Positions 5,801 to 47,990 of a stretch of DNA of 64,000 nucleotides are shown piece by piece. Under the pieces are notes generated by a model that saw nothing but the letters and a program-made list of their open reading frames with translations, had not been told where the DNA came from and ran no database searches. Made by a program: the position numbers and the translations under genes. Numbering within the stretch: the stretch's first letter is position 1; each line of letters opens with the position of its first letter. Source of the DNA: an uncultured bacterium (lineage in GTDB: Bacteria; Patescibacteriota; Minisyncoccia; UBA6257; 2-01-FULL-56-20); the NCBI GenBank assembly GCA_963719425.1, contig OY970382.1, positions 135,888-199,887 of the forward strand. The letters run 5' to 3'.

Positions 5801-7501
5801 ATGACGGCGGCCGAGGATAAAGAGTGTCAAAATTGCAAAGGGAAATTTTCAATTTTTCCCGACGATTTTGCTTTCTATGAAAAAATAAAAGTGCCGCCGC
5901 CGACGTGGTGTCCGGAGTGCCGGATGCAGAGAAGATTGGCGTGGCGGAATGATTTTACTTTTTACAATCGTACGTGTGATCTCTGCGGCAGGGACATAAT
6001 TTCGGTGTATGCCCCCAATAATCCTCAGACTATTTATTGCAATACGTGTTGGTGGGGCGACAAATGGGATGCAAAGCAGTATGGAATGGAATTTGACTTT
6101 ACCAAGCCGTTTTTTGAGCAATACCGAGTTTTGCGAGAGAAGGTTCCAGCGCTAGCATTGGTGAACGACAACGGAATCGGGAGCGTAAACAGCGAATATA
6201 TGCAGAATGTTGAGTTTAGCAAGAACTGCTACATGGCGATGGTGGCGTGGAAACTAGAAAATTGTCTGTATTCCAGTTATGGCGTGGAAGCAAAGGATGC
6301 TGTGGATTGTATGGGAATGTTGGGCAATAACGAGAGAACGTACGAATTGATGTACTCCGAAAAATGTTATGGGTGTCGTAATGTTTATAATTGCGCGTCA
6401 TTAATCGATTGCGCGTTCTGTTATGATTGCCACAACTGTGAGCATTGCTTTATGTCAGCCGGATTGCGGAATAAGAAATTCTGCTTTCGGAACCGGCAGT
6501 ATGCCGAGGACGAGTACAAAAAGATTGTTGACTCCTATGCGCTCCATTCCTGGTTTGGCAGCGAGCGTGCCAGGGAAGAGTTTGAAAAATTCATTCTCAA
6601 ATATCCACGGAAGTTCGCGTACCTCAAAAACTGTGTGAACTGTACGGGCGACAACCAATTCAATGCGAAAAATGCCCACTGGGTTTTTCACGCCCGTCGT
6701 ACCGAAAACAGCAAGTATCTTGAAAACGGCGATACCCAAATTGACAGCTACGATTTAAGCGTTGGGGGTGAGTTGGAGCAGTGTTACGAAGGGATCACCC
6801 CCGATCACTCACATCGTGCGTTCTTCACTATTTATACTTGGAAAAGCACCGATGCGATCTACTGCGAATTTTGTCAGTCTTCTCATAACCTTTTCGGCTG
6901 TGTTGGATTGAAGAGCGCTGAGTATTGCATTTTGAACAAAACATACTCGAAGGAGGAGTATTTCGATCTGCGTTCTAGAATAATTGAGCATATGAGAAAA
7001 ACAGGAGAGTGGGGTGAGTTTTTTCCAATGAATCTCTCTCCGTTCGGCTATAACGAAACAATGGCGCAGATGTCTTTTCCCTTGAGCAAAAAAGAGGCCA
7101 TACGAAGAGGATTGAGGTGGCAAGACAATATTCAGCAAACCACAGGAAAGGAGACCATGAGGTGGAACGATGTGCCTGATTCAATCCGCGATATCCAGGA
7201 TTCTATTTTGAACGAGATTCTGCTGTGTCAGAAATGTCATAGGAATTTCCGGGTTGTTCAATCGGAGTTGGAGTTTTATAGAAAAAACGATATTCCAATT
7301 CCGAGGATTTGTTTTTATTGCCGGTTAGCCGCGCGTTTTGCGTTGCGAACCCCGTCAAAACTTTGGAAGCGGCAATGTATGTGTGATAAAAACCACCCGC
7401 ATCATGCCGGGCAGTGCTTGAATAAATTTGAAACACCTTATGCTCCTAGCCGCCCCGAGGTCGTGTACTGCGAGCAGTGCTACCAGGCAGAGGTGGCATA
7501 G
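5801..7501 (+). CDS. large Cys-rich protein, paralog 1 of an undescribed family (bipartite zinc-ribbon modules)
   Basis: 566 aa. N-terminal CQNCKGKFSIFPDDFAFYEKIKVPPPTWCPECR. Central CxxC/CxGC-dense region. C-terminal CQKCHRNFRVV...FYRKNDIPIPRICFYCR ... SYAPSRPEVVYCEQCYQAEVA. Paralogs at 44325 and 46122. Confidence 0.8.
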   Translation: MTAAEDKECQNCKGKFSIFPDDFAFYEKIKVPPPTWCPECRMQRRLAWRNDFTFYNRTCDLCGRDIISVYAPNNPQTIYCNTCWWGDKWDAKQYGMEFDFTKPFFEQYRVLREKVPALALVNDNGIGSVNSEYMQNVEFSKNCYMAMVAWKLENCLYSSYGVEAKDAVDCMGMLGNNERTYELMYSEKCYGCRNVYNCASLIDCAFCYDCHNCEHCFMSAGLRNKKFCFRNRQYAEDEYKKIVDSYALHSWFGSERAREEFEKFILKYPRKFAYLKNCVNCTGDNQFNAKNAHWVFHARRTENSKYLENGDTQIDSYDLSVGGELEQCYEGITPDHSHRAFFTIYTWKSTDAIYCEFCQSSHNLFGCVGLKSAEYCILNKTYSKEEYFDLRSRIIEHMRKTGEWGEFFPMNLSPFGYNETMAQMSFPLSKKEAIRRGLRWQDNIQQTTGKETMRWNDVPDSIRDIQDSILNEILLCQKCHRNFRVVQSELEFYRKNDIPIPRICFYCRLAARFALRTPSKLWKRQCMCDKNHPHHAGQCLNKFETPYAPSRPEVVYCEQCYQAEVA

Positions 7502-7541: not shown

Positions 7542-9947
7542 ATGCTCGGCTTTTACATATTTTTGTCCGTTGTCGTTGCCGCCGTCGCGGGCACAGCGAT
7601 CTATTTTATTTTTCGCTCGCTCGCGCGGCGAAGGATAGCGCTGTCCTTGAGCACTTCGGTTTTTCTCATCAAAATTCCGAAGCCAGCCGGGGGATCGGAG
7701 GCCACTCCCGGAGGCTCGGAGAATAAGGATTTCAAGGCGGAACTCGCGCACTTTGAGCAGCTTTTAGGAAGCTTGGCGGCGATCAAGAAACCGTTCACGT
7801 TTGAAGTTGCTGTCCCGCATGTAGGAGAAGAGATCCACTTTTACCTTACCGTGCCGAAACTGTCTTCAGAAGTGGCTGCGAAACAGGTCTTGGGTCTGTG
7901 GAGCGGCGCCTCGGTGGAACGGGTGACAGACGATTTCAATATTTTCAATCCGCACGGCGAGGCTGTCGCGGCGTTCGTAAAGCAGAAGGAGCACTATGGG
8001 CTTCCCATGCGTACCTATAACGAACTCGGCATTGATTCGTTTGAGCCCATCGTGGGCGCGCTCGCGAAGATAAACGAGATCGGCGAGGGGGCAGCGGTGC
8101 AGGTCATCATGCAGCCCGCGCCTGCGGGAACAAAGAAAGAGGTGCAACGCGCAATAGAGCGTTTGAAAAGGGGCGAGCCGTTCAAAAAAGTGTTTCGGAG
8201 CGATTTCATGCGCTCACTCTCCGAGCCGGGGGAGATTTTGAATCCGAAGACCAAAGAGAAAAAAACGGAGGAGAAGCAGGAGCGCGTGGTAGACGAAGAG
8301 GCGGCGAAGGCGCTCCAGGCGAAGATCATGAAGCCGCTTTTCTTTGTAAACGTGCGGCTCGTCGCCTCGGCGGGGTCGCAATTCCAGGCGAATGATATTT
8401 TGGACGGGCTTGCCGCCGGATTCAGCCAGTTTGGGAGTCCTACGCGGAACGATCTCCGAGTGATAAAACCGCGGAACTCCGACAAGCTCATCCGCAAATT
8501 CATCTTCCGTGAATTTGACGCGTCGCAATCCATGACGCTTTCCAGCGAAGAGATCGCGAGCTTTTATCATTTGCCGATCTCGTCTACCGAAACGCCGCAC
8601 GTGAAGTGGCTCAAGTCAAAAGAAGCGCCGCCGCCGGAAAACCTCGCCAAACAAGGAGCGCTCCTCGGCTACAGCAATTTCCGCGGGGAATCAAGACCTA
8701 TTTACATCACGGACGAGGACCGACGCCGCCACATCTACGTGATCGGGCAGACCGGCACCGGGAAGACCACGGAGATTTCAAGCATGCTCATTGAGGATAT
8801 CCAGGCGGGCAAAGGCGTCGCGATCATTGATCCGCACGGGGAGTTCGCGGAGAAAGCGCTCGCCAAGGTGCCGAAGGAACGCGTTGAGGACGTGATCTAT
8901 TTTGACCCAAGCGACCTTGCGCGGCCCATGGGCATCAACATGCTTGATTACAATTTCAGCCGACCGGAGGAGAAAACGTTCATCGTGAACGAGCTTTTGG
9001 GAATTTTTGACAAATTGTATGACCTGAAGACCACGGGCGGTCCGATGTTTGAGCTCTATATGCGCAATGCTCTTCTTCTTCTTATGGAAGACATGCCGAA
9101 CGAGGAGGCGACCCTGATTGAGGTGCCCCGCATTTTCACGGACACTGCGTATCGCGTGCGGAAGCTTGAACGTATCCAGAATCCTACCGTCATTGATTTC
9201 TGGGAAAAGGAGGCGATCAAGACAAGCGGCGAGCAGTCGCTCGCCAACATGGCGGTGTACGTGAGCTCAAAGTTCACCGCCTTCATCTCTAACGACTACA
9301 TGCGGCCGATCATCGGCCAACCGAAGTCGGCGTTCAATTTCCGCGATGCGATGGACAACGGGAAGATTTTACTCATCAACCTTTCAAAAGGGAAGATAGG
9401 CGACCTCAACGCCAACCTGCTCGGCATGATCTTCATCGGGAAGATTTTGATGGCGGCCCTCTCGCGCGTGGAGATCGCGGATGAGTCAAAGCGCCGTGAC
9501 TTTTACCTCTATATTGACGAGTTCCAAAATTTCGCCACCGAGGCGGTTGCGACTATCCTTTCCGAGGCGCGCAAATATCATTTGAGCATGACGATGGCGC
9601 ACCAATTTATCGCGCAGCTTAAAGAGAATATCCGCGATGCCGTCTTCGGCAACGTGGGAACCCAGCTCATATGCCGCGTGGGACCGCAGGACGCGGAATT
9701 CCTCGTGAAGCAATTTGAGCCGGTATTCAACAAGAACGACCTTATCAGTATTGATAATCTGAACGCGTTTGTGCGGCTTCTCGTGAACGGCCAGACCTCG
9801 CGCCCGTTCAATATGAAGATGAACACGTCGTCGTGGGCGCCTGGCAATGCCGAACTCGCCGCGAAGCTCAAAGAGTATTCACGCATAAAGTTCGGACAGG
9901 ACAGGCAGGTGATAGAAGACGAGATCTATCGGCGCCTGCGGGAGTAG
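7542..9947 (+). CDS. membrane-anchored P-loop ATPase, type IV coupling protein-like (VirD4/TraD/FtsK-HerA superfamily)
   Basis: N-terminal TM helix. Walker A IYVIGQTGTGKTT. Walker B FYLYIDEFQNF. C-terminal AHQFIAQL motif resembling T4CP. No other T4SS genes nearby. Confidence 0.55.
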   Translation: MLGFYIFLSVVVAAVAGTAIYFIFRSLARRRIALSLSTSVFLIKIPKPAGGSEATPGGSENKDFKAELAHFEQLLGSLAAIKKPFTFEVAVPHVGEEIHFYLTVPKLSSEVAAKQVLGLWSGASVERVTDDFNIFNPHGEAVAAFVKQKEHYGLPMRTYNELGIDSFEPIVGALAKINEIGEGAAVQVIMQPAPAGTKKEVQRAIERLKRGEPFKKVFRSDFMRSLSEPGEILNPKTKEKKTEEKQERVVDEEAAKALQAKIMKPLFFVNVRLVASAGSQFQANDILDGLAAGFSQFGSPTRNDLRVIKPRNSDKLIRKFIFREFDASQSMTLSSEEIASFYHLPISSTETPHVKWLKSKEAPPPENLAKQGALLGYSNFRGESRPIYITDEDRRRHIYVIGQTGTGKTTEISSMLIEDIQAGKGVAIIDPHGEFAEKALAKVPKERVEDVIYFDPSDLARPMGINMLDYNFSRPEEKTFIVNELLGIFDKLYDLKTTGGPMFELYMRNALLLLMEDMPNEEATLIEVPRIFTDTAYRVRKLERIQNPTVIDFWEKEAIKTSGEQSLANMAVYVSSKFTAFISNDYMRPIIGQPKSAFNFRDAMDNGKILLINLSKGKIGDLNANLLGMIFIGKILMAALSRVEIADESKRRDFYLYIDEFQNFATEAVATILSEARKYHLSMTMAHQFIAQLKENIRDAVFGNVGTQLICRVGPQDAEFLVKQFEPVFNKNDLISIDNLNAFVRLLVNGQTSRPFNMKMNTSSWAPGNAELAAKLKEYSRIKFGQDRQVIEDEIYRRLRE

Positions 9948-14365: not shown

Positions 14366-15016
14366 TTGAGGCAATACAAGGCGCACCGGCGCAACAATAA
14401 AAGACTTATGTGCTGCCCGACAAGGCGAGAAGAGGTTTTCTGTGCGCGCTCTGAACGTACTGAACCTACCACAGTGAGGCTTCACAAGCATCCTTTGGGG
14501 TCATTTTGAAAAATGAAAACAGCTCTCAGTAGCGTCCGTTATAAGGGGTTTTCAAGGAGCTTTGAGGGGTACAAACTGGACAAAGCGGACTCTATAGGGG
14601 CATTCCGGACGCGTCCGGTTTGACTGATTAAAAAAATTGTCGTCTTGTATTGGATGATGATATTGAGGACAGAAGAGACTGCCGCGAAGGGTACGACTTG
14701 CCTTTATATGCATAAGCCGTTCCGGCAATCTACATCTTACGGCTTGGTATGCGGCTTTATGATAGAAAAAAGAATATACTTGAAACAAGACGATATTGAT
14801 AAAAAGGATTTTACGGATAAGGCCGACGCATCGAACGGAAGCGAATATGCGATCGGAGAAAAGGAAGACCAATTCGACGGGACGGATTTGCCACTGCCAC
14901 GACCATTGAAATCGCCATAAAATGGACATTGTACATCTCAATCTGCAGGAAAATATATCATGAATCTATGGGTTTAATCGGCTTAGAGATTGGCAACTAC
15001 AGAAATCTCAATAGCA

Positions 15017-18000
15017 ATGAAAAGAAAAAATAAGAGAAAATTAAAAGAAAGTTGGAAAGCTATAGCAGGAATTGCGGTTATAGTAGGAATTCTTGAGGCC
15101 GTAGATGTATTTGCGGGAATTAATTTCAATAACTTCCCTCAGTGGGTCGTAGCCGAATGTGTCAAAAAGAATTACCCACTATGTGGTAACACTATAACTG
15201 TTCAAGCTATATGTCTTCTTGCTTCCATACTCTTAATACTCGGCATAATAGAACTTATTTCGGCTTCTTTAAAACAAAACAGAAAATATTTTGAATTAGT
15301 CGATTTCGAAAAACCAACTGGTGAAGTCAGAAGAGAGGCGCTTGAGGGAATCCTGAATTCAGAAAAAGCCAAGCCCTCGTTTGTGCATGTCGCCCCAATC
15401 AGTGAAGAAGTTGAGAGCTCTTTTAAGAAACTGGACAAAGAGGGCTTTCTTTGGATAAGCGGCAGGCCGGGTGAGGGGAAAACCATGCTGGCTTATCATG
15501 TTCTTTATAAATTCTTTAAGCAAGGATACAAAATCTATGAGCTTAAGACCGATCTCATCAATAAAGACCTTGTCAGTGACGAAAAGAAACTTGAACAGAT
15601 AGTCGGTGAATTAGATATTTTAAAGGGAGGCAAGAGAAAAATAATATTGATTGACGACGCGCATAAGCTTGAGCCGAAGTTTGAAGATGGCCTAATGTCT
15701 GAAATTAGAGATGAAGCAGAAGAAAAAATAAATGGAAAATTTTTTGGGATAGACACGAATTATTTGGGAACAAAGGAATTAGACCAATCCAGTTCAATCG
15801 CTCTTAACTTCGACGAATTTTACAAGACGACGTTTTTTAAAAAATTATACCAATCCGAAGACCCATTAATAAAAGAGGTTGTCGAAAATAGATGCATCAA
15901 TCTAGAGGGGGCGATTAAGCAAAAGGAAGTGGATCACGAAATAAAAGACCCGTGGCATTTTAACTTTATCGCTACCAAGGGAGAAGAAAGAATAACCGAG
16001 GCGTTAAACGACCTTGGCGGCGGGAATGAAGCAAAACGCAGAATATTAAGAATAGCAATATTTTTATTCTCGGTTCGGAATATAATTACGGGAGAAAAAG
16101 AAATTACCGAAATCGATTTTATTGATAAGGTGTTGCCAACTATCAATAATGAGTACGTTTATAATCCTTATCAGTCCGATCCCCTTAAGATAATCATTGA
16201 TTTAGTTCAGGAGAATCGCAGATTATTGATTATTAACGACGAAAGTTCCTTTCAGAGGAATCTCTTGAAAGCACCGCACTACAGATCGTCCATCGCAATT
16301 GTTAAACGGCTTACTGAACTATGTGACGAAAATGAAGTAGAGCGGATGATTGATGCCTCCAAGATATTTCTTAAAAACGATTATAAGGACAGCGCGTATC
16401 TCGGCGTTTATTTTTCCTCAATCGGAAAGTATCAAACGTATTTTCTTAACGAAAATAAGAACTGGGTTAAGGGCTTTTTGACCAACGTAATTGTTGAGCA
16501 ACTTCAAGTTTATCCCTTTTTCTTGAACATTCTGAGAGAGTATCATGAAGAATTTTTTAGAAAATTGATCACCGACGAATATTTTGATACTATTGCCCCT
16601 GAAATATCATCGTCTAGTGCCAATAAATTTAGCGCAATTGCGGCTTTCCTTACGGCTTTGAAAGACAAGAGGGGCGAACTTATCGGCAGATTGAACTTTG
16701 AAAAACTGGCTGAAGTGGCCAATAAGGCCGGGGCGGATCAACTCTCACAAGTAGCGGAATTCCTTGGAGCTTTGAAAGACAAGAGGGGCGAACTTATCGG
16801 CAGATTGAGCTTTGAAAAACTGGCTGGAGCGGCCAATAAGGCAACGGTGTATCAACTCAAGCAAGTAGCGGCTTTCCTTACGGCTTTGAAAGACAAGAGG
16901 GGCGAACTTATCGGCAGATTGAACTTTGAAAAACTGGCTGAAGTGGCCAATAAGGCCGGGGCGGATCAACTCTCACAAGTAGCGGAATTCCTTGGAGCTT
17001 TGAAAGACAAGAGGGGCGAACTTATCGGCAGATTGAGCTTTGAAAAACTGGCTGGAGCGGCCAATAAGGCCGGAGTGGACCAACTCGAACAAGTAGCGAA
17101 CTTTCTTCAAACATTGGGAAACGAGAGAAATAAACTCGTTGAGAAATTTGACTTTGAAAAACTGGCTGGAGCGGCCAATAAGGCAACGGTGTATCAACTC
17201 AAGCAAGTAGCGGCTTTCCTTACGGCCTTGGAAGACAAAAAGGGCGAACTTATCGGCAGATTGGACTTTGAAAAACTGGCCGAAGCGGCCAATAAGGCCG
17301 GAGTGGAGCAATTCGCGCAACTCGAAGCGATTTTAAATGTATTGGGAAACGAGAGAAACAAACTCATTGAGAAATTTGACTTTGAAAAACTGGCTGGAGC
17401 GGCCAATAAGGCAACGGTGTATCAACTCAAGCAAGTAGCGGACCTTCTAGGAGCTTTAAAAGACAAGAGGAAGAAACTTTCGCAATATTTCGTCACTGAA
17501 GTCATTTTACGTTATTCTAAATTATTAGGTAGAGATCAAATCCCTTCTTTTTGTATAATAGTGGCAAATTTGGATAAGCAGAAAAAAAATCAAGTAATCC
17601 AAAACATCGACTGGGCTTCCTTATTAGACTTGACGCCTATCAATCATCCCGATATCATTAAGCATCTTTCTTATATCCTAGACTACCACAATACAAAGTG
17701 CAATTTGCTTAATCAAGATGCAAATGATAAAAGAATACGAGATTATTTAAGTATCAATAGGAATAAGATTATTTATTTTTCTACTTGTTTGTTCTCGCCA
17801 CCGGACGGTTATCAAAGCGCTGCATATGTTTTGGATGCATTATACCCGCACGCGATTGACATTTCTAAAACAATTGTTGGAAACCTGGAATATAAAATAA
17901 TAAGCCAATTTAAGATTTCGCCTCTTTATTACCATAGTTTTTCACATTTGCTTGATGCTATCCATCGAATTCACCCTCCAGCAAGCAACGCTATTCTTTC

Positions 18001-18184
18001 GGATCGCTTGGTTTGGGAAAAACTTTACAGCTCACTTCAAGAGGATGATTTTAAAGACCACCAATATGGATTACAAAACTTAATCAACTCCATAAAGACC
18101 ATAAATCCTATTGGATACAATGAAATTATTGCCAATAAGATTATAAATCAAAAACTTTTGATATGTCATATTTTGACACATTAG
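15017..18184 (+). CDS. membrane-anchored P-loop NTPase (STAND/AAA-like) with C-terminal 38-aa helical tandem repeats
   Basis: Two N-terminal TM helices. Walker A ISGRPGEGKTM. Walker B KIILIDDAH. Eight or more repeats of FEKLAxxANKAxxxQLxQVAxFLxALKDKRGELIGRL. AT-rich composition. ORF track start 14990 is TTG. First ATG at 15017 used. Confidence 0.75.
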   Translation: MKRKNKRKLKESWKAIAGIAVIVGILEAVDVFAGINFNNFPQWVVAECVKKNYPLCGNTITVQAICLLASILLILGIIELISASLKQNRKYFELVDFEKPTGEVRREALEGILNSEKAKPSFVHVAPISEEVESSFKKLDKEGFLWISGRPGEGKTMLAYHVLYKFFKQGYKIYELKTDLINKDLVSDEKKLEQIVGELDILKGGKRKIILIDDAHKLEPKFEDGLMSEIRDEAEEKINGKFFGIDTNYLGTKELDQSSSIALNFDEFYKTTFFKKLYQSEDPLIKEVVENRCINLEGAIKQKEVDHEIKDPWHFNFIATKGEERITEALNDLGGGNEAKRRILRIAIFLFSVRNIITGEKEITEIDFIDKVLPTINNEYVYNPYQSDPLKIIIDLVQENRRLLIINDESSFQRNLLKAPHYRSSIAIVKRLTELCDENEVERMIDASKIFLKNDYKDSAYLGVYFSSIGKYQTYFLNENKNWVKGFLTNVIVEQLQVYPFFLNILREYHEEFFRKLITDEYFDTIAPEISSSSANKFSAIAAFLTALKDKRGELIGRLNFEKLAEVANKAGADQLSQVAEFLGALKDKRGELIGRLSFEKLAGAANKATVYQLKQVAAFLTALKDKRGELIGRLNFEKLAEVANKAGADQLSQVAEFLGALKDKRGELIGRLSFEKLAGAANKAGVDQLEQVANFLQTLGNERNKLVEKFDFEKLAGAANKATVYQLKQVAAFLTALEDKKGELIGRLDFEKLAEAANKAGVEQFAQLEAILNVLGNERNKLIEKFDFEKLAGAANKATVYQLKQVADLLGALKDKRKKLSQYFVTEVILRYSKLLGRDQIPSFCIIVANLDKQKKNQVIQNIDWASLLDLTPINHPDIIKHLSYILDYHNTKCNLLNQDANDKRIRDYLSINRNKIIYFSTCLFSPPDGYQSAAYVLDALYPHAIDISKTIVGNLEYKIISQFKISPLYYHSFSHLLDAIHRIHPPASNAILSDRLVWEKLYSSLQEDDFKDHQYGLQNLINSIKTINPIGYNEIIANKIINQKLLICHILTH
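16630..17480 (+). repeat. in-frame coding tandem repeat (114-bp unit; two successive 228-bp copies are nucleotide-identical)
   Basis: Stretches such as CTTTCCTTACGGCTTTGAAAGACAAGAGGGGCGAACTTATCGGCAGATTG... recur exactly at about 16643 and 16871. Protein-level 38-aa repeat. Confidence 0.8.
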
Positions 18185-25973: not shown

Positions 25974-27377
25974 ATGAGAATCGCGGTTTCTGACATAGTG
26001 CAACACGAGGGGAAGGAAGTAGAGCTTTATGGGTGGGTGCATGCGCGGCGCGACCATGGGAAGCTCGTGTTTATTGACCTCCGCGACCGGAGCGGTTTGG
26101 CGCAGGTGGTCTTAGGGCCGGCGATTAAAAACGCTTCCGATCTTCGCCTGGAATACGTGGTTCGCGTAAAAGGCGAGGTCAAAAAGCGCCCGCCCGCGAT
26201 GGTAAACGAGAAACTACCGACGGGCCATTATGAAGTAAGCGCGAGCGAATTGGCCGTTTTGAGTCCTGCGGAACCGCTGCCGTTCCCGATAGATGATGCG
26301 GGATATGAGATCAACGAAGAAATTCGTTTGAAGTACCGCTATCTGGACCTGCGGCGCGAGCGGATGCAGCGCAACCTGAAGCTGCAACACGAGATGTTCC
26401 AGTTCATCCGCCGGTATCTCACGGAAAAGGGTTTTTGGGAGATTGAAACGCCGATTCTGACCAAGTCCACGCCGGAGGGAGCACGGGATTTTTTGGTCCC
26501 GTCGCGCCTCCAACATGGGAAGTTTTACGCTCTGCCGCAGTCGCCCCAGCAGTACAAGCAGTTTTTGATGGTGGCGGGCGTGGAAAAGTATTTCCAGATA
26601 GCCCGCTGTTTCCGCGACGAGGATCCGAGAGCGGATCGCGCATACGGAGAATTCACGCAGCTGGATTTGGAAATGTCATTTGTCGCTCAAGAAGATATCT
26701 TGCACTTGGCCGAAGATCTTTTTACGCGGCTCGTGCAGGCGACATTCCCGGAGAAGAAGATCGCGCAGTCCCCGTGGCCGCGCCTTTCCCATAGGGAAGC
26801 CAGGGCACGATACGGCACCGACAAACCGGATCTGAGGAAGGATAAAACCAATCCCGACGAACTGGCGTTCGCGTGGGTGATCGACTTCCCGCTTTTCACG
26901 GAACAGACCAAAGAGGATTTTTTCCATGGTTCCGGCAGTGCGAAATTCGCGCCGTCCCACCACATGTTCACCGCGCCGCACCCGGACGATATTTCCCTTT
27001 TGGATACCGATCCGACGAAAGTCCGCGGCTTGCAGCATGATATGGTATTGAACGGTTTTGAAGTAGGCGGCGGCAGCGTTCGTATTCACCAAAGAGATAT
27101 CCAGGAAAAAGTATTTGACCTGATTGGGTTCAGCCGCGAGCAGAAGGAACAGTTTGATTATTTTTTGAACGCGTTCACGTACGGCGTGCCTCCGCACGGC
27201 GGCATCGCGCCGGGACTGGACCGCTTCCTCTACGCCGCGCTTGGGGAAAGGAGCGTCCGCGAGGTAATCGCCTTCCCGGCGAGCTCCGGCGGGCAGGCCG
27301 CCGTCGTGACCGCGCCCTCCGCGGTAGACACGAAGCAGCTTGATGAATTAGGATTGGAAATTAAGAAAAAGAAATGA
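25974..27377 (+). CDS. aspS: aspartyl-tRNA synthetase (short form lacking GAD insertion)
   Basis: Class II aaRS motifs (FRDED, GGGSVRIH, GIAPGLDR). N-terminal OB fold. Start re-chosen at ATG 25974. Confidence 0.8.
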   Translation: MRIAVSDIVQHEGKEVELYGWVHARRDHGKLVFIDLRDRSGLAQVVLGPAIKNASDLRLEYVVRVKGEVKKRPPAMVNEKLPTGHYEVSASELAVLSPAEPLPFPIDDAGYEINEEIRLKYRYLDLRRERMQRNLKLQHEMFQFIRRYLTEKGFWEIETPILTKSTPEGARDFLVPSRLQHGKFYALPQSPQQYKQFLMVAGVEKYFQIARCFRDEDPRADRAYGEFTQLDLEMSFVAQEDILHLAEDLFTRLVQATFPEKKIAQSPWPRLSHREARARYGTDKPDLRKDKTNPDELAFAWVIDFPLFTEQTKEDFFHGSGSAKFAPSHHMFTAPHPDDISLLDTDPTKVRGLQHDMVLNGFEVGGGSVRIHQRDIQEKVFDLIGFSREQKEQFDYFLNAFTYGVPPHGGIAPGLDRFLYAALGERSVREVIAFPASSGGQAAVVTAPSAVDTKQLDELGLEIKKKK

Positions 27378-28444
27378 AAGATCTGACATTCCCCATTTTC
27401 AAGACCAAAGTGCAGGGCGTCGCAAAAAAATTCAACTTGAATGATCTGGATGAGCGCCGAGAATATTTTTCGCTGAAAGCGGGAAAGGAAATCGCGGCGA
27501 TAAGAAAATATCTTGAAAGCGGGAAAGCGTTCGTGGCATATCTTTTGGGGAAAAAGAATTCCGGAAAAGGAACCTATTCCAAGCTTTTCATGGAGGCGGT
27601 CGGCAACGCCCACGTCGGGCACGTGGCAGTAGGGGATATTGTCCGCGACGTGCACGCGGGACTTTCGGATCCGGCAAAGAAAAAAGACCTTTCCAAGTTC
27701 TTGGAAAAGCATTACCGCGGCTTTCACTCGTTGAAGGAAATAGACGGGCTGATTGAAGGGCGGAGCCAGTCCACGCTCGTATCCACCGAGCTCATCATCG
27801 CCCTTTTGAAATACGAAGTGAGCAAGCGGCCGCGCCAGGCGATCTTCATTGACGGATTCCCGCGCGGGCTGGACCAGGTCAATTACTCAATCTTTTTAAG
27901 AGAGCTTTTGGGGTATCATGGCGAGCCGGACTTCTTTGTGTTCATTGACGTTCCGAACACCGTCATTGACGAGCGCATCAAAACGCGCGTGGTGTGCCCC
28001 ATCTGCAAGGTTCCCCGCAATACGAAGCTCGCTCCCACGAAAGAGATCGGCTACGACGAAACAAAAAAGATGTTTTATCTGATGTGCGATACTCCGTCGT
28101 GCCACGGAGCGCGGATGTCGCCGAAGGAGGGCGACGAGCTCGGGATTGAGCCGCTCCGCGCCCGCCTCACGGCCGACGAGAAGATATTTCGGCAGCTTTT
28201 CACGCTCACCGGCGTTCCCAAGGTGTTGTTAAGGAACTCAGTGCCGGTGGACAAGGCGGCCGATTTTGTGGACGACTATGAGGTTACTCCCGTGTACGGA
28301 TACGAGAGAGATGAGAAAACGAAGAAGATAAAAATTATTGAGACCCCTTGGATCGTTGACGACGACGGGGTGCCTTCCTACAGTTTGTTACCCGCGCCCG
28401 TGGCGCTGTCTCTCATCAAACAGACCGCGAAGATCCTTGCGTGA
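27374..28444 (+). CDS. adenylate kinase-family P-loop kinase with N- and C-terminal extensions
   Basis: GKKNSGKGTYSKLF...VGDIVRD resembles AK P-loop/NMP-binding region. Zinc-lid CPICK...CDTPSCHG. Start overlaps aspS stop (ATGA). Confidence 0.5.
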   Translation: MKDLTFPIFKTKVQGVAKKFNLNDLDERREYFSLKAGKEIAAIRKYLESGKAFVAYLLGKKNSGKGTYSKLFMEAVGNAHVGHVAVGDIVRDVHAGLSDPAKKKDLSKFLEKHYRGFHSLKEIDGLIEGRSQSTLVSTELIIALLKYEVSKRPRQAIFIDGFPRGLDQVNYSIFLRELLGYHGEPDFFVFIDVPNTVIDERIKTRVVCPICKVPRNTKLAPTKEIGYDETKKMFYLMCDTPSCHGARMSPKEGDELGIEPLRARLTADEKIFRQLFTLTGVPKVLLRNSVPVDKAADFVDDYEVTPVYGYERDEKTKKIKIIETPWIVDDDGVPSYSLLPAPVALSLIKQTAKILA

Positions 28445-28962: not shown

Positions 28963-29085
28963 CAAAGAGGCGTCGTAATGTTTTCATGAGGGCATCTCGG
29001 AGCCACGGCGGCTTGAGGCAACCTTTAGGTTGCCCGCCGGGGCGAGCGACGCCGTCCCTCATGAAAACATTACGACGCCTCTTTG
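28963..29085. repeat. 30-bp perfect inverted repeat with 63-nt spacer (MITE-like or bidirectional terminator)
   Basis: CAAAGAGGCGTCGTAATGTTTTCATGAGGG (28963-28992) pairs with reverse complement at 29056-29085. Inner hairpin GGCAACC-TTTA-GGTTGCC. Right arm overlaps last codons of prfA. Confidence 0.75.
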
Positions 29086-29801
29086 CGAAACGCCTTCACG
29101 ATCGGATCCATGTCGCCGTCCAAAATCTTTGGGATGTTGTGCCATTTTTTCCCGATGCGATGGTCGGTGATGCGATCATCGGGAAAATTATAGGTGCGGA
29201 TCTTTTCCGAGCGGTCTGCGCTGCCGATCTGTTCGCGGCGGAGATCGGTTACGGATCCTACCGTTCTGTGTTGTTCCATTTCGTATAGTTTCGCGCGGAG
29301 AATATCCATCGCCTTTTCGCGGTTCGCGTGCTGGGAGCGCTCCTCGCGCGAGGAAACAACAATGCCGGTCGGTTTATGGAGAATGCGCACGGCCGTTTCC
29401 ACCTTATTCACATTCTGCCCGCCCGGACCGCCGGCACGAGAGAACGTCGCTTCAATGTCGCCCGGTGCGATGTTCACCTCGCGCGCTTCCACAACTGGTA
29501 ATACGGCTACTGAAGCGGTGGAGGTGTGCACGCGCCCCGATTTTTCCGTTGCCGGGATTCGTTGCACGCGGTGCACGCCGGATTCGTTCCGAAGCGCCCC
29601 GTAGCATCCCGCGCCTTGCACTTCGGCCACGAGTGATTTAAATCCTTGGAGCGAGGTTGCGTTTGAGTCAAGCACGGAAAACACCCAGCCGCGCTTCGCC
29701 GCATAGCGCTGATACATGCGCGCGAGATCGCCCGCGAAAATGGCGGCTTCGTCGCCGCCCGCGCCAGCCCGTATTTCAAGGATGATCTTATCCGTTGTCA
29801 T
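29070..29801 (-). CDS. prfA: class I release factor RF1-type lacking N-terminal domain 1
   Basis: PAT tripeptide ([15 protein letters not shown]) and GGQ ([18 protein letters not shown]). Starts at [20 protein letters not shown], equivalent to RF1 domain 2. Only 30 nt upstream before the next gene. Confidence 0.7.
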
Positions 29802-29831
29802 TGTTTTGTATGATATAATAATAGTACATCA

Positions 29832-34074: not shown

Positions 34075-34464
34075 ATGCCGAAGAAATTTGTCGATGTCTA
34101 TCACGATCCCGAGAAGCCGCCTCCGGAAGACCCGACCGATCCCGGGCTGCAGGAACCGGACCGGCCGATGCGGATAAAAAAGGGCGTACCCGCTGAACTC
34201 TGGAAGAAAATTAAAGCTGGGACGGAAAGCAAAGAGTTGGACTACCGTCTTTGCCCCCATCCAGATTGCGGGGAAAAAGCCGAGCACATACACGTAATAG
34301 ACGATCCCAAGCTCGGATTCGGCTGGATGTATGAGCACGGAAACCACAGATGGTTCCAGCACTATATTAAAATGGGGACCGAGGTGGAATATCGCATAGA
34401 AGACCCCGATGCGAGCGGGAACCTGCCTTTTGAGGAACAACATGAGGGAAATACAAAATCTTAA
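34075..34464 (+). CDS. hypothetical protein
   Basis: 130 aa from ATG 34075 (MPKKFVDVYHDPEK...). Pro-rich N-terminus. CPHPDCGE...H motif. Overlaps prfB start. Confidence 0.45.
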   Translation: MPKKFVDVYHDPEKPPPEDPTDPGLQEPDRPMRIKKGVPAELWKKIKAGTESKELDYRLCPHPDCGEKAEHIHVIDDPKLGFGWMYEHGNHRWFQHYIKMGTEVEYRIEDPDASGNLPFEEQHEGNTKS

Positions 34465-35486
34465 CGAGCTTGCGACCGATGCCCGCCGGTTAGGCGGGCG
34501 GCTTTGACCTGGCCGCAAAGGAAAAGAGAATAAAAGAATTGGAAGCCGAGATGGCCGACGAGGCGTTTTGGAAGAATCGCGCGGCGGCGGACGAAGCAAT
34601 CAAGGAACTTGGGACTTTGAACAATCTCGTCACGCAGTATCGCGACATTGAGAGCGGCATTGCGGCGCTTACGGCCGCGGCGGGGACGAAAAATTTTGAC
34701 GAAGGAAAATTTTACGAGCTCAAGCGGCAGTTCAAGGATTTTGAGCTGAAACAACTTTTCACCGGCCGCTATGATATGCAGGCGGCGGTGCTTTCGGTAT
34801 ATCCCGGCGCGGGCGGCGAGGACGCGGAGGACTGGGCGCGGATGCTCGGCGTCATGTACGAAAATTACGCGAAGCGGCGGGGATGGAAGCTGCGCGTGAT
34901 TGACGACAACATCCGCTCGCGCACGGTGGAGATCCGCGGCGACTATGCGTACGGTTATTTAAAAAAGGAATCCGGCGTGCACCGGCTTGTGCGCATCTCG
35001 CCGTTCTCGCCGAAGAAATTGCGGCACACTTCGTTCGCGCTTGTGGAAGTAATTCCGGATTTGCCGCCGCTTGAAGAATCAAAACTCCAGATCCCGGAAA
35101 AAGACCTCAAATTTGAGTTTTACCGCTCGGGCGGTCCCGGCGGGCAGAACGTGAACAAGGTGGAAACGGCCGTGCGCGTGGTGCACTTGCCAACCGGCTT
35201 GGCGGTGAGTTCTCAGGCGCAGCGCTCTCAGGCGCAGAACCGTGAGTATGCGCTCAAGCTCCTCAAAGCGAAACTTTTCAGCCTGATGGAGAAGGAAAAG
35301 GTGAGCGAGATCAGCGCGTTGCGCGTGAAAGTAAAACCGGAGTGGGGGAATCAGATCCGCTCGTACGTCCTTAATCCTTATCAATTGGTAAAAGACCACC
35401 GGACGGAGGCGGAAACCGCGAAGGTGGACAGCGTTTTGGCGGGCGACTTGGACCCGTTCATTGAAGCGGAACTTGAAATGTTGTAG
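34442..35486 (+). CDS. prfB: peptide chain release factor 2, requires programmed +1 frameshift at CTT TGA C (34502-34508)
   Basis: Frame 0 ATG 34442 encodes MREIQNLNELATDARRLGGRL then in-frame TGA. +1 frame continues DLAAKEKRIKELEAEMADEAFWKN... with SPF (VRISPFSPKK) and GGQ motifs. Confidence 0.85.
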
Positions 35487-35508: not shown

Positions 35509-36192
35509 ATGATTGTTTTTCAAGGGGTTTCCAAGCATTACAACCACCACGCCACGGCGCTGGAGGAAGTGTCGTTCCAGATTGATCCGGGAGAATTCGT
35601 GTCGCTCGCGGGCAGATCGGGTGCGGGAAAGTCCACCGTCATCAAGCTTCTGATCGGCGAGGAAAAACCCACGAAGGGACGGATATTTTTCGGGCAGTAC
35701 GAAGTGAGCAAATTGGTGGATAAGGAACTGCCTGCCTTCCGGCGGCACATCGGCGTCGTGTTCCAGGATTTCCGGCTCCTCCCGACCAAAAACGCGTATG
35801 AAAACGTGGCATTCGCGCTTGAGGTGGCAGGGCGACCGCAGCGGGAAATTGCGGAACTCGTTCCACAGGTTTTGGACATGGTAGGATTAGGGGACAAGAT
35901 GCGGAATTTTCCGGGCGAGCTTTCGGGCGGCGAACGGCAGCGCGTGGCGATCGCGCGGGCGATGATCCATCGGCCGGAGGTCGTGATCGCCGACGAGCCG
36001 ACGGGAAACCTTGATCCGTTTCACACATTTGAAATCGTGAAGCTTTTGGAGAAGATCAACCAGCTAGGTACGACGGTCGTGCTTGCGACCCACGACAAGG
36101 AAGTGATCAATAGCCTGGAGAAGAGAGTGATCACACTGGATCGCGGACGGCTCATCCGCGACGAGCAAAAAGGAAAATATATCCTGGTATGA
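35509..36192 (+). CDS. ftsE: cell division ABC ATPase FtsE
   Basis: Walker A GRSGAGKST. Signature LSGGERQRVAIARA. Walker B VVIADEPTGNLD. Followed by ftsX. Confidence 0.8.
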   Translation: MIVFQGVSKHYNHHATALEEVSFQIDPGEFVSLAGRSGAGKSTVIKLLIGEEKPTKGRIFFGQYEVSKLVDKELPAFRRHIGVVFQDFRLLPTKNAYENVAFALEVAGRPQREIAELVPQVLDMVGLGDKMRNFPGELSGGERQRVAIARAMIHRPEVVIADEPTGNLDPFHTFEIVKLLEKINQLGTTVVLATHDKEVINSLEKRVITLDRGRLIRDEQKGKYILV

Positions 36193-36216: not shown

Positions 36217-37128
36217 ATGATAACGGTCATTTCGCGCATCTTCCAATTCGGGCTGAAGAACTTCCGGCGGAATGGGTGGCTTTCCATGGCGACGATGGCC
36301 ATCATGACGATTGCGCTTTTCGTATTCGGCTCGCTCATCATTTTCGGCGTGATCACCGACCGCGCCGCCGCCTCTATCCAAGACAAGATTGACATCAGCG
36401 TGTATTTCAATACAAACACATCCGAGGATCAGATTTTGAACATCCGACAGTCGCTTGAGGGATTGTCGGAGGTGCAGAGCGTGAATTATATTTCGCGCGA
36501 TCAGGCGCTCGCGATTTTCAAGCAAAACCATGCGAATGATGCGACGGTGAGCCAGGCGATCAACGAGCTTGATACGAATCCGCTTGAAGCGTCGCTCAAT
36601 ATCAAAGCGAAGGATCCGAGCCAGTATGCCGCAATCGCGCAATATTTGAGTTCGCCAGACATCACGCAGTATCTGGACGGCCAGCCGAGCTATTACAACA
36701 ACCAGACCGTGATTGACAGGCTCGCGAAGATCGTAAAAACAGTGGAGACCGGCGGATTTGTCGTCGCGCTGCTCCTTGCGCTCATCGCGGGGCTCGTGGC
36801 CTTCAATACGATCCGCCTCGCTATCTATTCCAACCGCGAGGAAATCGGCGTCATGCGCGTGGTGGGCGCTTCCAACGCCCTCGTGCGCGGGCCGTACGTG
36901 GTAGAGGGCGTGCTCTGCGGTGCAATCTCAACCGTCGTCAGCTTGATTCTGATCGCGCCCATGCTCTATTTCGTTTCGCCGTATCTTGATGTGTTCATCC
37001 CCGGCTTGAACATTTTTCAGTATTTCTATGTCCATCTCCTGCAATTTTTCCTCTATGAACTTCTCTTCGGCGTTGTGATTGGCGGACTTTCCAGCTTCAT
37101 TGCGGTCCGGCGGTATCTAAGAAATTGA
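36217..37128 (+). CDS. ftsX: cell division permease FtsX
   Basis: 303 aa. N-terminal TM, large periplasmic loop, three C-terminal TM helices. Downstream of ftsE. Confidence 0.75.
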   Translation: MITVISRIFQFGLKNFRRNGWLSMATMAIMTIALFVFGSLIIFGVITDRAAASIQDKIDISVYFNTNTSEDQILNIRQSLEGLSEVQSVNYISRDQALAIFKQNHANDATVSQAINELDTNPLEASLNIKAKDPSQYAAIAQYLSSPDITQYLDGQPSYYNNQTVIDRLAKIVKTVETGGFVVALLLALIAGLVAFNTIRLAIYSNREEIGVMRVVGASNALVRGPYVVEGVLCGAISTVVSLILIAPMLYFVSPYLDVFIPGLNIFQYFYVHLLQFFLYELLFGVVIGGLSSFIAVRRYLRN

Positions 37129-44324: not shown

Positions 44325-46115
44325 TTATACCACCTCCGCCTGATAGCACTGCTCGCAGTAGACGATTTCGGGGCGGTCGGGAGCGTAGGAAGTTTCAAAC
44401 TCGTTGGGACAAGGCTTACTACCGTGAAAATGAGGGGCGGTATTTGTGTAGCTGCCTACCTTCGCTCCAACGCATGCACACGTACGTTTATAAAGCTGCG
44501 GAACATTGCGCCAGCTGATACGCTCTACGTGGCGACAATTGAAACACAGCTTCGGCAATGGCAAATTCATTTGCCTATAGAACTGCAATTCTTGCTGCGT
44601 GATGCGGAAAACCGTAGGACAATTGGCTCCGCATTGGCGTCCGGCATGATCTCCGGTTTCGTCGTGCTGGCACTGGATTATCTCTTGGGTGATAGCATCA
44701 CCGGTTTCGGTGATAGTATCGGGCAGGGTGGAAGCGGCTTGGGTTGGTTCATATCTTCTTTTCTCGGGAACGCGCCACTTGAATCCCATGCGCTCAACCT
44801 GACTTCTCGGAAGTTGGAAATATTCATACGCTTGGGATTCGTTGAACCCGAAGGGGCTCATGTCGGGCGGGAAGAACTCGCCGTACTTGTATTTCCTGCC
44901 GAGCGCATCCACATAAGGCACCTCGTTCATATGCGCGATTATCTTTGGAATAAGTGATTCATATTCTTCTTTTGAGTACTGCTTATTGAGGACGCAGTAC
45001 TGCGCGTTGCGCAGTCCCACGCAACCGAACACATTCCGCGAGTTGCGGCACGTGACGGAATAGCGTATGTCACTCACCGTTTCGCAATCAAACGAAAAAT
45101 ATACTCCGCGCAGGCCTTGTCCGCAGCAGCTTATTTCATAGTTGCGTTCAATATCGACGCCCGAGGAGGTAACGTCTATGCAGTCCCGAATTGGGTTGTA
45201 GATGACGCTCTGGCAATGCGCGCAGTTTTGGACCTCATTCGTGAAAAAACAATTGCGCACCTCCGAGGAGTTGTATATATAGTCGCCGATGCAACCCTCA
45301 TCCTTTAGTCCGTGCCGAAAACGGAACGGAAACGAAAGCCAAACCCTCTCCGCCTCTCGTTGCATTCGTTCCAATCCCCGCCTTGAGTGCAGGTTAAATC
45401 CCGCCACTTTTTTTCGATAGTTTTCTTTCGAGTATGGTTGGTTAAAGATATAGTAGCTTTTGTTCCGCAAACCAGTGCACCCCACGCAGTCGCTGCACCC
45501 GACGCAATCCTGGCTGAACCATATTTCGCGGCAACCGGTGCAATTTCTGGAAAAGAAGATCCGGTAACAGTTCGTCGTGTTGATCACGTAATAGCAAAGT
45601 TCGCATAGTTTGCAATTGATGGTGTCAAAACATTGCCTGCTCTTTTGTAGGGAAACACCATATGCACTGTCTTCAGAAAACCCAGCGTCAAAGCAGAGAT
45701 ACGTATTTTTCATGTCCAGACCCATGCTGTAATCGCTGTTGACCTGGTTGCGGGACATGATGTAGGTGAAGGGCACGACGTTGAATAAATCCCGTATTTG
45801 ATCAAAAAACGGCCGCGTAAAATCATATTCCCGCGCGTATGCCCTGGGATCCCACGCGTCGCTCCACCAGTAGTCTCGCTCAAACGGGGGCATGGGCGCA
45901 TTAGGGGGCACCATGCTGAAAATTTTTTTACCAGTGCCAGCGCAAGTGCGTTCGTAGAGATAGCGGAAGTTACGAAAAGCCATCCGCCGCATGGCCCGGC
46001 ATCTCCAGCACCAGGTCGGTGGCGGCACGTTGAGGCTTTTATAGAATGTAAAATCCTCCGGCTCTATCGTGAATTGGTTTTTGCAATTCTGGCAAATTCT
46101 TGTTTCAGTATTCAT
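44325..46115 (-). CDS. large Cys-rich protein, paralog 2 (tandem pair)
   Basis: 596 aa. N-terminal CQNCKNQFTIEPEDFTFYKSLNVPPPTWCWRCR. Central DCVGCSDCVGCTGLRNKSYYIF. C-terminal ...SYAPDRPEIVYCEQCYQAEVV. Confidence 0.8.
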   Translation of the reverse strand: MNTETRICQNCKNQFTIEPEDFTFYKSLNVPPPTWCWRCRAMRRMAFRNFRYLYERTCAGTGKKIFSMVPPNAPMPPFERDYWWSDAWDPRAYAREYDFTRPFFDQIRDLFNVVPFTYIMSRNQVNSDYSMGLDMKNTYLCFDAGFSEDSAYGVSLQKSRQCFDTINCKLCELCYYVINTTNCYRIFFSRNCTGCREIWFSQDCVGCSDCVGCTGLRNKSYYIFNQPYSKENYRKKVAGFNLHSRRGLERMQREAERVWLSFPFRFRHGLKDEGCIGDYIYNSSEVRNCFFTNEVQNCAHCQSVIYNPIRDCIDVTSSGVDIERNYEISCCGQGLRGVYFSFDCETVSDIRYSVTCRNSRNVFGCVGLRNAQYCVLNKQYSKEEYESLIPKIIAHMNEVPYVDALGRKYKYGEFFPPDMSPFGFNESQAYEYFQLPRSQVERMGFKWRVPEKRRYEPTQAASTLPDTITETGDAITQEIIQCQHDETGDHAGRQCGANCPTVFRITQQELQFYRQMNLPLPKLCFNCRHVERISWRNVPQLYKRTCACVGAKVGSYTNTAPHFHGSKPCPNEFETSYAPDRPEIVYCEQCYQAEVV

Positions 46116-46121
46116 ATCACG

Positions 46122-47903
46122 TTATGTCACCTCTGCCTGATAGCACTGCTCGCAGTACACGATCTCGGGGCGGTCGGGGGCATAGGAGGTTTGAAAACGA
46201 TTTGGACACGCTTTTTCTGAATGGAAATGGCGTACAGTATTTTTGTAGACTGAGTTATTTGCATGCAATCCTGCGCATTGACACTGTCTTTCAAAAAAGC
46301 GAGGGATGTTTCTTTGCCGCAAGCGCCCATAATGACGGCAGTTGGGGCAAAGCCGCGGGAGCGGGAGATGGAAGCGTTGCAAAAACGCCAATTCCTGCGG
46401 GATAATCCGGAAAGCCCCGGTGCATTCTTCCTCGCATTTCCCTTTGTGCGCGCAACCTATCACTTCTTTCAGGACGCTATCATCCATATCCGAAATTCGA
46501 TCCGCCAAATTCCCTGCCGCCTTCGTGGGCGCATAATCGCGTTTTTCCTCTTCACGCCAAGGCAGTTTTCTGGCCTCCGCCCACTCGCGGCTCCGCGGAT
46601 ACAATTCCTGCGCCTCGGAGATGTTGTACGGGAACGGAGAGAATTCCATCGGGAAAAATTCGCCGTAACGATGGATGCAACCCGCGGCATTTACATAGGG
46701 GACATCGTTCATATGTTTGACGATCTTGGGAACGAGAGTTGCATACTCTGCTTTGGAATATTGCTTGTTCAATATGCAATATTGTTTGTGGTGCAAATTC
46801 GCGCAGCCGAAAATATCCGTGGAACCCGGGCAATTTATCGAATATTCCACATTCTTGCAACCACCCCAGCAGTAGGCAGAGAATTTTACGTTATAGGTTT
46901 TGTTCCCGCATGTTATCGAGTCATAAATGAGTTCTGATGCGTCACCCCAGTTGGCGTAGTCGTAGCAATCCTTCGCTGGCCCCGCGAGCAGATTTACGCA
47001 GTACTTCACATCTTCCGCGCCGGTGACCCGATAACAGTAATGGGCGTTCTTAGAGTGATACACATAATCGCCGGATACGTTTAGGTTTTGAAGCCCCTGC
47101 ATGAATTTCACCGGGAATCTTAGCCACACCTCATTCGTCCGCTGCCGACATTTCTCGAACGCGCCGTAAGAGCCAAGGTCCAGCTCCCGAACCCGCGTTG
47201 CGTACTCCTCTTTGCGATAAGGGATATTGAAAATGCAGTATGATTTGCTGCGCAACCCAACGCATCCAACGCAGTCCGAGCAACCGACGCAATCTTTCGA
47301 AAAAAGCACATCGCGGCAGTCCTCGCAATTCATCGAGAAGAAGGTTTGATAACAGCGCGCCATATTCACATTTCCATAACAAAATTCGCAATGATTTGTC
47401 ATGTGGCTGTCTATGCAGTGCTTGGAGGATTCGTCCCAAATTACATATGCACAATCCTCCGTATGCGCCAACCCATGGGAAAAGTAGCAATTTTTGGAGA
47501 ATGAGGCATTCGCGCAATATTCGCAATTGGTTATGCTTTGTACGTTTGCATGGGGAAACGGCGTTTCGAGAAAGAGCTCGTGAACCTGCGCGAGAAATGG
47601 CCGCGACCAGTCTATTTCTCTTCCATATACTAACGGATCCCAGCCGTCGGAATGCCAAAAATCCTTATCGTAAATTTTTAGCGGCGATTCTGGGGGGACG
47701 AATGAGAGTATTTCCTGCCCGGTTCTCGTTTCCTGTCTTTTATACAGGTGCCACACGTTCCTCCATGCGAAGCGCCGCGCAGAGCGACATTCTGGACACC
47801 AGATAGGCGACGGTACCTTTATCTTCTCGTAAAACGCAAAATCCTCCGGCTCGATTGTGAACTGGTTCTCACAGTTCTGGCACACCCGCGTTTCCCGTTC
47901 CAT
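46122..47903 (-). CDS. large Cys-rich protein, paralog 3 (tandem pair)
   Basis: Start re-chosen at internal ATG (MERETRVCQNCENQFTIEPEDFAFYEKIKVPSPIWCPECR). Central DCVGCSDCVGCVGLRSKSYCIF. C-terminal ...SYAPDRPEIVYCEQCYQAEVT. 6 nt upstream of paralog 2. Confidence 0.8.
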   Translation of the reverse strand: MERETRVCQNCENQFTIEPEDFAFYEKIKVPSPIWCPECRSARRFAWRNVWHLYKRQETRTGQEILSFVPPESPLKIYDKDFWHSDGWDPLVYGREIDWSRPFLAQVHELFLETPFPHANVQSITNCEYCANASFSKNCYFSHGLAHTEDCAYVIWDESSKHCIDSHMTNHCEFCYGNVNMARCYQTFFSMNCEDCRDVLFSKDCVGCSDCVGCVGLRSKSYCIFNIPYRKEEYATRVRELDLGSYGAFEKCRQRTNEVWLRFPVKFMQGLQNLNVSGDYVYHSKNAHYCYRVTGAEDVKYCVNLLAGPAKDCYDYANWGDASELIYDSITCGNKTYNVKFSAYCWGGCKNVEYSINCPGSTDIFGCANLHHKQYCILNKQYSKAEYATLVPKIVKHMNDVPYVNAAGCIHRYGEFFPMEFSPFPYNISEAQELYPRSREWAEARKLPWREEEKRDYAPTKAAGNLADRISDMDDSVLKEVIGCAHKGKCEEECTGAFRIIPQELAFLQRFHLPLPRLCPNCRHYGRLRQRNIPRFFERQCQCAGLHANNSVYKNTVRHFHSEKACPNRFQTSYAPDRPEIVYCEQCYQAEVT

Positions 47904-47990
47904 TACCTCAATTCTACCAGAATAGGAAAAACCTACGCCTCTCGGTCTGCCCGGCACTCATATTTGTATGGTATCCTAGGAAAGAAACGG

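Follow-up and report, generated by a model that had tools for sequence, protein, structure and literature searches.

RF1 is universal and essential in bacteria, and its four-domain plan is treated as invariant. The DNA analysed here, a stretch of 64,000 nucleotides (the window), carries a gene for a protein of RF1 type, 243 aa long, that seems to begin at domain 2, and thereby raises the question of what kind of factor it encodes: a housekeeping RF1 that has lost its N-terminal domain 1, an accessory factor working beside a full-length RF1, one half of a split gene, or an artefact. The gene and its 5' side comprise the following features.

29070..29801, minus strand: putative prfA orthologue encoding a 243-aa RF1 with domains 2, 3 and 4 only, N-terminus MTTDK..., ATG start, TAA stop.
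Within its product, domain 2 spans approximately residues 1-105, domain 3 residues 106-195 and domain 4 residues 196-243.
29802..29831: 30-nt A/T-rich divergent intergenic region between the RF1 gene and the ATG (29832) of a response-regulator gene.
29829..29831, minus strand: TGA in the frame of RF1, read from the sequence.

Reading of the sequence and its ORFs bears out an earlier note on this DNA, which had claimed a 243-aa RF1-type ORF at 29070..29801, separated by only 30 nt from the divergent gene and with no room for domain 1: the distance is exactly 30 nt, an in-frame stop lies 10 codons 5' of the RF1 ATG and there is no alternative start between the two. Since this TGA is the first codon of the spacer in the RF1 frame, an N-terminal extension is impossible. 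In the aligned upstream regions of orthologous RF1 genes, conservation at the nucleotide level ends at the ATG, and each aligned orthologue has an A/T-rich -10-like box 10-20 nt upstream of it. A promoter scan found -10-like boxes (TATTAT/TATCAT) on the minus strand 10-15 nt before the RF1 ATG, and an extended -10 element, TGATATAAT, on the plus strand, ending about 11 nt before the ATG of the response regulator. No Shine-Dalgarno sequence precedes either ATG within 29802..29831, thus both RF1 and the response regulator may have leaderless or very short-leadered transcripts.

The Pfam PCRF profile covers residues 5-98 of the protein with its positions 101-194 (of 194) only, and the Pfam RF-1 (GGQ) domain covers residues 108-215 (profile positions 4-116 of 116). 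In the NCBIfam prfA models the match starts at position ~105-112 and runs to the end, and gap-free alignment to PDB chains pairs the protein with residues 112-344 of Escherichia coli RF1, 107-341 of Thermus thermophilus RF1 and 85-318 of Thermotoga maritima RF1, its identity to solved RF1s being 50-55%; over domains 2-4 it is colinear with canonical RF1s at 45-55% identity. Pfam, NCBIfam and the PDB alignments therefore agree that the protein starts at RF1 domain 2 and that domain 1 is absent, which had earlier been proposed from the sequence. For the measurement of N-termini, an E. coli RF1 sequence served as the ruler; its numbering agrees with that of the PDB-chain alignment.

The N-terminal helical domain 1 that belongs to the RF1 architecture is thus missing, and the score of the NCBI curated prfA equivalogs is not reached (363.2 bits with NF001859 vs a cutoff of 400, and 351.3 bits with TIGR00019 vs a cutoff of 423.25), a shortfall that corresponds to the ~105 missing model positions. 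The prfB model gives 245 bits and the PrfH model (TIGR03072) 83 bits vs a cutoff of 166.65, while the ArfB model matches residues 107-141 only, that is, the GGQ segment. Alignment to RF1 and PrfH profiles, which the earlier note had named as a way to check its claim, thus returned 351-363 bits for prfA and 83 bits for PrfH. The PxT motif and the other reading residues, the GGQ in a domain 3 that is inserted into the domain 2/4 superdomain, the best match and the position in the tree are those of an RF1. The protein has PAT where an RF2 has SPF, and its ORF is uninterrupted, with no +1 frameshift site; it has domains 2 and 4, which sets it apart from ArfB/ICT1, defined by a GGQ domain alone with a basic tail. 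We conclude, with a probability of roughly 0.8, that the 243-aa protein is a genuine prfA orthologue, the three-helix domain 1 of which was lost by lineage-specific reduction in a Paceibacteria/Minisyncoccia branch of the CPR.

Canonical RF1s (E. coli, T. thermophilus, T. maritima) share with the 243-aa RF1 the colinear domains 2-4, the reading residues, the GGQ motif and the predicted fold, but carry in addition a helical domain 1 of ~105 aa that contacts bL12/uL11 and RF3, which the 243-aa RF1 lacks. In T. maritima domain 1 is already shorter (~84 aa); in no solved or curated RF1 is it reduced to zero.

The residues that read the stop codon and catalyse release were located on the minus strand.

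29748..29771, minus strand: RAGAGGDE, residues 11-18, tip of helix alpha5; R11, G13, G15, G16 and E18 are invariant in the alignment.
29547..29555, minus strand: PAT tripeptide 'anticodon' of RF1 type, residues 83-85 (CCG GCA ACG).
29415..29423, minus strand: GGQ catalytic motif, residues 127-129 (GGC GGG CAG).

The tip of helix alpha5 reads the first base of the stop codon (U1) in RF1 and RF2, as established by RF1-70S structures. PAT and GGQ, both read from the reverse-complemented sequence, are canonical, as had been noticed before. Across the alignment of truncated and full-length RF1s, R11, G13, G15, G16, E18, Q80, P83, T85, H92, T93 and GGQ are invariant, and so is the core of domain 4; Q80, H92 and T93 correspond to Q181, H193 and T194 of T. 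thermophilus RF1. Judged from this alignment, every known stop-codon-reading and catalytic residue is intact in the 243-aa RF1. Compensating changes in domains 2-4 were considered and set aside: the truncated clade differs from full-length RF1s there by five mild clade-specific substitutions only (A123, P126, D208, V235 and F238), and the alignment holds no insertion. When the AlphaFold model of the protein (pLDDT 84.6) is superposed on the open, ribosome-bound form of RF1, the TM-score is 0.86 and the rmsd 2.7 Å, values obtained with deposited ribosome-bound chains many of which are themselves modelled without domain 1.

How domain 1 came to be absent was followed in 80 related loci from GTDB species representatives; for each locus we determined how far the reading frame extends N-terminally of domain 2.

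Non-CPR bacteria: extension of 104-117 aa.
Two CPR genomes: 102-106 aa.
A large Paceibacteria group (RAAC4_OD1_1, Taylorbacteria, Nomurabacteria and others): 72-82 aa, with no helix alpha1.
Single further lineages: 51 aa and 23-30 aa.
The group of the window (MAGs labelled Jorgensenbacteria or Liptonbacteria, and other MAGs): 0-7 aa.

Domain 1 forms a graded series in the CPR, from ~105 through ~77, 51 and 23 to 0 aa. Remnants of 20-54 aa are present in RF1s of other CPR lineages (L014, L016, L024, P0127, P0254, P0150 and P0181), the shortest of which, MDWQEWKK... and MDYFEWKK..., of an MD(W/Y)xEWKK-like type, begin much as the 77-aa class does (MDLxELKK...). This likeness suggests repeated internal deletions of domain 1. 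One protein of 232 aa (P0122) has an additional deletion of ~10 aa inside domain 2. In a tree of domains 2-4 all CPR RF1s fall together, and the forms with no domain 1 make up one cluster among them, to which a form of 25 aa is sister; another form, of 23 aa, falls apart from these inside the 77-aa clade, which implies that reduction took place more than once. The tree was made by neighbour-joining without bootstrap from the 80 loci that resemble the query most, and its sample is therefore query-biased. On these sequence comparisons, the truncated RF1s mark the last stage of a reduction that proceeded in steps among the CPR RF1 orthologues. TPA_asm MAGs that bear the label 'uncultured Candidatus Saccharibacteria bacterium' occur here and there in the CPR part of this tree, also in clades of Paceibacteria type (loci L007, L009, L014, L029 and L037 are examples); these labels look generic rather than taxonomic.

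The alternative that survives best, though we regard it as improbable, is that the 243-aa protein is an accessory factor, a rescue factor similar to PrfH or ArfB or some other specialized factor, and that a full-length housekeeping RF1 is encoded elsewhere in the genome. The class-I release factors without domain 1 known so far, the PrfH proteins, are indeed rescue factors, with diverged reading loops and an operon shared with an upstream gene for the RtcB ligase (PMC1586002, PMC6514570), the score of the 243-aa protein is below the prfA equivalog cutoffs, and the search covered 64 kb of a contig of ~888 kb. In PrfH/RFH (TIGR03072), as in the 243-aa RF1, domain 1 is absent while domains 2-4 and GGQ are present, but the codon-recognition loops of PrfH are altered, whereas those of the 243-aa RF1 are canonical, with invariant RF1 reading residues. 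No RtcB gene adjoins the RF1 gene in the window or in the loci of relatives that we examined, the neighbours being response regulators, a NUDIX gene, an adenylate kinase (ADK)-like gene and a class II aaRS gene and, upstream of RF1 in more distant members, a gene of ~290 aa or others. The contrast with PrfH drawn in the earlier note from the canonical recognition motifs is sustained by this absence and by a PrfH score (83 bits) far under 166.65. The GGQ domain is also common to ArfB, ICT1 and C12orf65; these proteins, however, lack domains 2 and 4 and have a basic C-terminal tail, the 243-aa RF1 being their opposite on both counts, and the match to ArfB is confined to the GGQ segment. The position of the protein inside the CPR RF1 clade, the intermediate lengths of domain 1 in sister lineages, and the lack of any full-length protein among the 120 nearest homologues also argue against an accessory role. 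No second copy of prfA is present in the window; the claim that this is the only RF1-like gene thus stands for the 64-kb window, and for the window alone. As the truncated forms end a stepwise series within the CPR orthologues, the phylogeny makes a full-length prfA elsewhere in the genome unlikely.

If the 243-aa protein is the RF1 of this organism, its domain 1 could still be encoded separately and supplied in trans, or be replaced by a non-homologous partner. PMC1586002 describes domain 1 as a flexible, semi-independent module, a property that suits such a division, and the search spanned 7% of the genome. We nevertheless deem a split gene very improbable. The decrease from 105 to 77, 51, 23 and 0 aa, with internal deletions, has the look of erosion and not of fission, and no conserved small ORF accompanies the RF1 gene across its differing contexts. 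An HMM of domain 1, built from 52 RF1 N-termini, returned nothing but weak matches to the domain 1 of RF2 when run on the six frames of the 64-kb window and on the regions that flank the gene in 14 relatives; a split gene in the window or in those regions was rejected on this result, which comes from an HMM of low power (RF2's own domain 1 is found at E ~0.06). Domain 1 is poorly conserved, hence the low power.

The reduced RF1 is shared by a clade. In a database protein search, all 120 nearest homologues (80-100% identity) were 231-253 aa long. Their sources are assemblies of NCBI, ENA, JGI and Logan, under the labels Minisyncoccia, Paceibacterota or Patescibacteria, and they lie on contigs of up to 898,885 bp, several of them 0.5-0.9 Mb long. 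Synteny was compared with relatives whose RF1 is 92% and 87% identical: independent assemblies keep the same order, with two response regulators divergent from RF1 on one side and the NUDIX, ADK-like and class II aaRS genes on the other. In distant members the same RF1 start follows a co-directional gene of ~290 aa, an upstream gene that overlaps by 4 nt, or others, so that at least three different upstream neighbours precede the same 5' boundary of RF1. Against six orthologues, dN/dS was 0.065-0.10 in five, the sixth being saturated in dS; by this measure, the truncated RF1 is under strong purifying selection. The earlier note had foreseen that a missed frameshift or sequencing error might hide an upstream extension, and that relatives might or might not share the truncation. 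A hidden extension was rejected on the in-frame TGA 10 codons upstream, the lack of a start between and the negative domain-1 HMM, together with a 5' boundary that is common to all 120 homologues and is seen again in independent assemblies; the relatives do share the truncation, with the same boundary behind several upstream neighbours and under purifying selection.

Other short 'RF1' entries are of a different nature. P0136, P0148, P0152, P0156 and P0163, as well as P0165, P0194, P0247, P0142, P0241 and others, were considered as natural short RF1s and discarded on inspection as contig-edge fragments, which, in the 50%-identity library, start in the linker between domains 1 and 2 and have frameshifted, out-of-frame high-GC tails; P0121 and P0123 were discarded as assembly chimeras with an internal duplication of RF1. 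Protein length alone therefore cannot identify natural RF1 truncations, and an internal, well-bounded position of the gene matters because these other entries are contig-edge fragments. That the 243-aa form is itself an artefact or a pseudogene, due to mis-assembly, to a frameshift or to a recent deletion confined to this one genome, is hardly conceivable, even with many public short entries being such fragments with frameshifted tails. In several independent assemblies the gene lies inside contigs of 0.5-0.9 Mb; it has a proper ATG with an in-frame stop upstream, its boundary is conserved, and it evolves at a dN/dS of 0.07-0.10.

The second class-I release factor of the window has kept its domain 1.

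34442..35486, plus strand: prfB (RF2), full length with domain 1, ending in TAG.
34502..34508, plus strand: programmed +1 frameshift site of prfB, CTT TGA C, seen in the sequence and its ORFs.
35509..36192: ftsE, 3' of prfB.
36217..37128: ftsX, after ftsE.

ORF0 of prfB runs from the ATG at 34442 to the frameshift site and ORF1 onward to the TAG at 35486. The RF2 had been described earlier as full length at 34442..35486; this is correct for the product, which matches the PCRF profile at positions 9-194 and the RF-1 domain, but the full length is reached only through the programmed +1 frameshift and not by a single ORF. The 120 nearest homologues of RF2 measure 281-345 aa, almost all of them falling within 305-345, and align over 91-100% of the ORF that follows the frameshift. 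RF2 homologues with domain 1 and truncated RF1s occur together on contigs of 898,885, 827,485, 99,775 and 179,667 bp; RF2 thus retains domain 1, and also its +1 frameshift site, where RF1 is truncated, which implies that the loss is specific to RF1. The stop codons of 35 Pfam-supported genes of the window are TAG in 7, TAA in 13 and TGA in 15 cases, and a cruder count over the window gives ~30% TAG. As TAG ends 7 of the 35 genes, prfB included, RF1 activity is needed.

What a release factor may lose with domain 1 can be judged from studies on model organisms. PMC1586002 describes domain 1 as the least conserved and most flexible domain of the release factors and links it to the interaction with RF3; it also reports that an E. 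coli RF1 stripped of domain 1 has unchanged codon specificity and in vitro release and is active in vivo (Mora et al. 2003, Mol Microbiol 50:1467, via PMC1586002). The engineered E. coli truncation, as described there, has the same architecture of domains 2-4 as the 243-aa RF1. It is, however, a laboratory construct in a host that has RF3, whereas the 243-aa RF1 is natural, fixed in a clade and under purifying selection. The closest described counterpart of the 243-aa RF1 is this engineered truncation; apart from truncations made in the laboratory, the form without domain 1 has been seen only in PrfH, a rescue factor. A broad survey of the diversity of release factors in bacteria contains no mention of a natural RF1 lacking domain 1, and no prior description of such an RF1 in the CPR was found in the literature, an absence that is not proof.

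In PMC6076264, cryo-EM shows domain 1 touching the C-terminal domain of bL12 and the region of uL11 and aiding delivery of the factor. According to PMC10287982, RF3 is absent from many bacteria, and E. coli RF1 dissociates slowly without RF3 (~10 s). No RF3, uL11, bL12 or PrmC is encoded within the 64-kb window. We propose that the 243-aa RF1 would bind the A site at UAA and UAG through the PAT loop and the alpha5 tip, swing its GGQ domain into the peptidyl-transferase centre and hydrolyse peptidyl-tRNA as canonical RF1 does, all without the contacts of domain 1 to the bL12 C-terminal domain, the uL11 stalk base and RF3. Because these contacts are missing, we infer that it would reach the ribosome without assistance from the stalk and leave it spontaneously. 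The loss of domain 1 might have accompanied the absence of RF3 or been permitted by it; a slow-growing organism whose genome is small, and which probably has no RF3, may tolerate the loss or even profit from it, faster spontaneous dissociation being a possible benefit. By analogy with the engineered truncation and from its conserved residues, the protein is predicted to be a fully competent UAA/UAG release factor, that is, a minimal UAA/UAG-dependent peptidyl-tRNA hydrolase. That this whole clade of the CPR terminates at UAA and UAG with a minimal RF1 unable to touch bL12, uL11 or RF3, while its RF2 keeps domain 1, we put forward tentatively, at somewhat less than even odds.

The restriction of the loss to RF1 is an asymmetry to be explained. 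E. coli ribosomes without L11 are reported to be inactive with RF1 and not with RF2 (Tate 1984, cited in a reviewer comment in PMC1586002); from such a dependence of RF1 on L11, a loss of domain 1 in RF1 and not in RF2 would not be predicted. If our proposal is true, domain 1 would be dispensable for RF1 but not for RF2. A possible reason is that the autoregulatory frameshift site of RF2 lies within the region coding for its domain 1; another is a role of domain 1 that is specific to RF2 and does not involve RF3. If, in addition, prfC is absent, these organisms would offer a natural case of RF1 termination independent of both the stalk and RF3. A clade-wide loss of domain 1 from a housekeeping RF1 under selection would confirm the in vitro result that domain 1 is outside the catalytic core, and the erosion from 105 through 77, 51 and 23 to 0 aa would be a ready-made natural series of deletion mutants, which could serve to test how stalk contact and RF3 recycling affect the speed of termination.

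The reduction also bears on annotation. Since the scores are below the prfA cutoffs, NCBI names the RF1 homologues only 'PCRF domain-containing protein', a name given likewise to the records of the RF2 homologues. Pipelines could score such genomes as lacking RF1, with misleading estimates of completeness or a false inference of UAG reassignment as the possible outcome.

Several other genes of the window deserve mention.

5801..7501 (plus strand), 44325..46115 (minus strand) and 46122..47957 (minus strand): cysteine-rich paralogues.
7542..9947, plus strand: 801-aa ATPase similar to VirD4/TrwB-type coupling proteins (TrwB_AAD_bind, T4SS-DNA_transf, TraG-D_C).
14990..18184, plus strand: 1064-aa protein with an N-terminal STAND/AAA NTPase signature (nSTAND3) and no other recognized domain.
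27374..28444, plus strand: 356-aa protein with a weak, partial adenylate-kinase match (residues 132-228).
50300..52729, plus strand: 809-aa fusion in a single ORF, G6PD_N and G6PD_C joined to an NAD_binding_2 and 6PGD module.

The three cysteine-rich paralogues, two of them adjacent, are 36-46% identical, 566-611 aa long and rich in CxxC pairs; no Pfam match was found for any of them. The 1064-aa nSTAND3 protein, by its domain signature, may be a defence or signalling NTPase. The 356-aa ADK-like gene lies between the class II aaRS and NUDIX genes, beyond NUDIX as seen from RF1, in all close relatives. The product of 50300..52729 is a glucose-6-phosphate dehydrogenase fused to a module similar to 6-phosphogluconate dehydrogenase.
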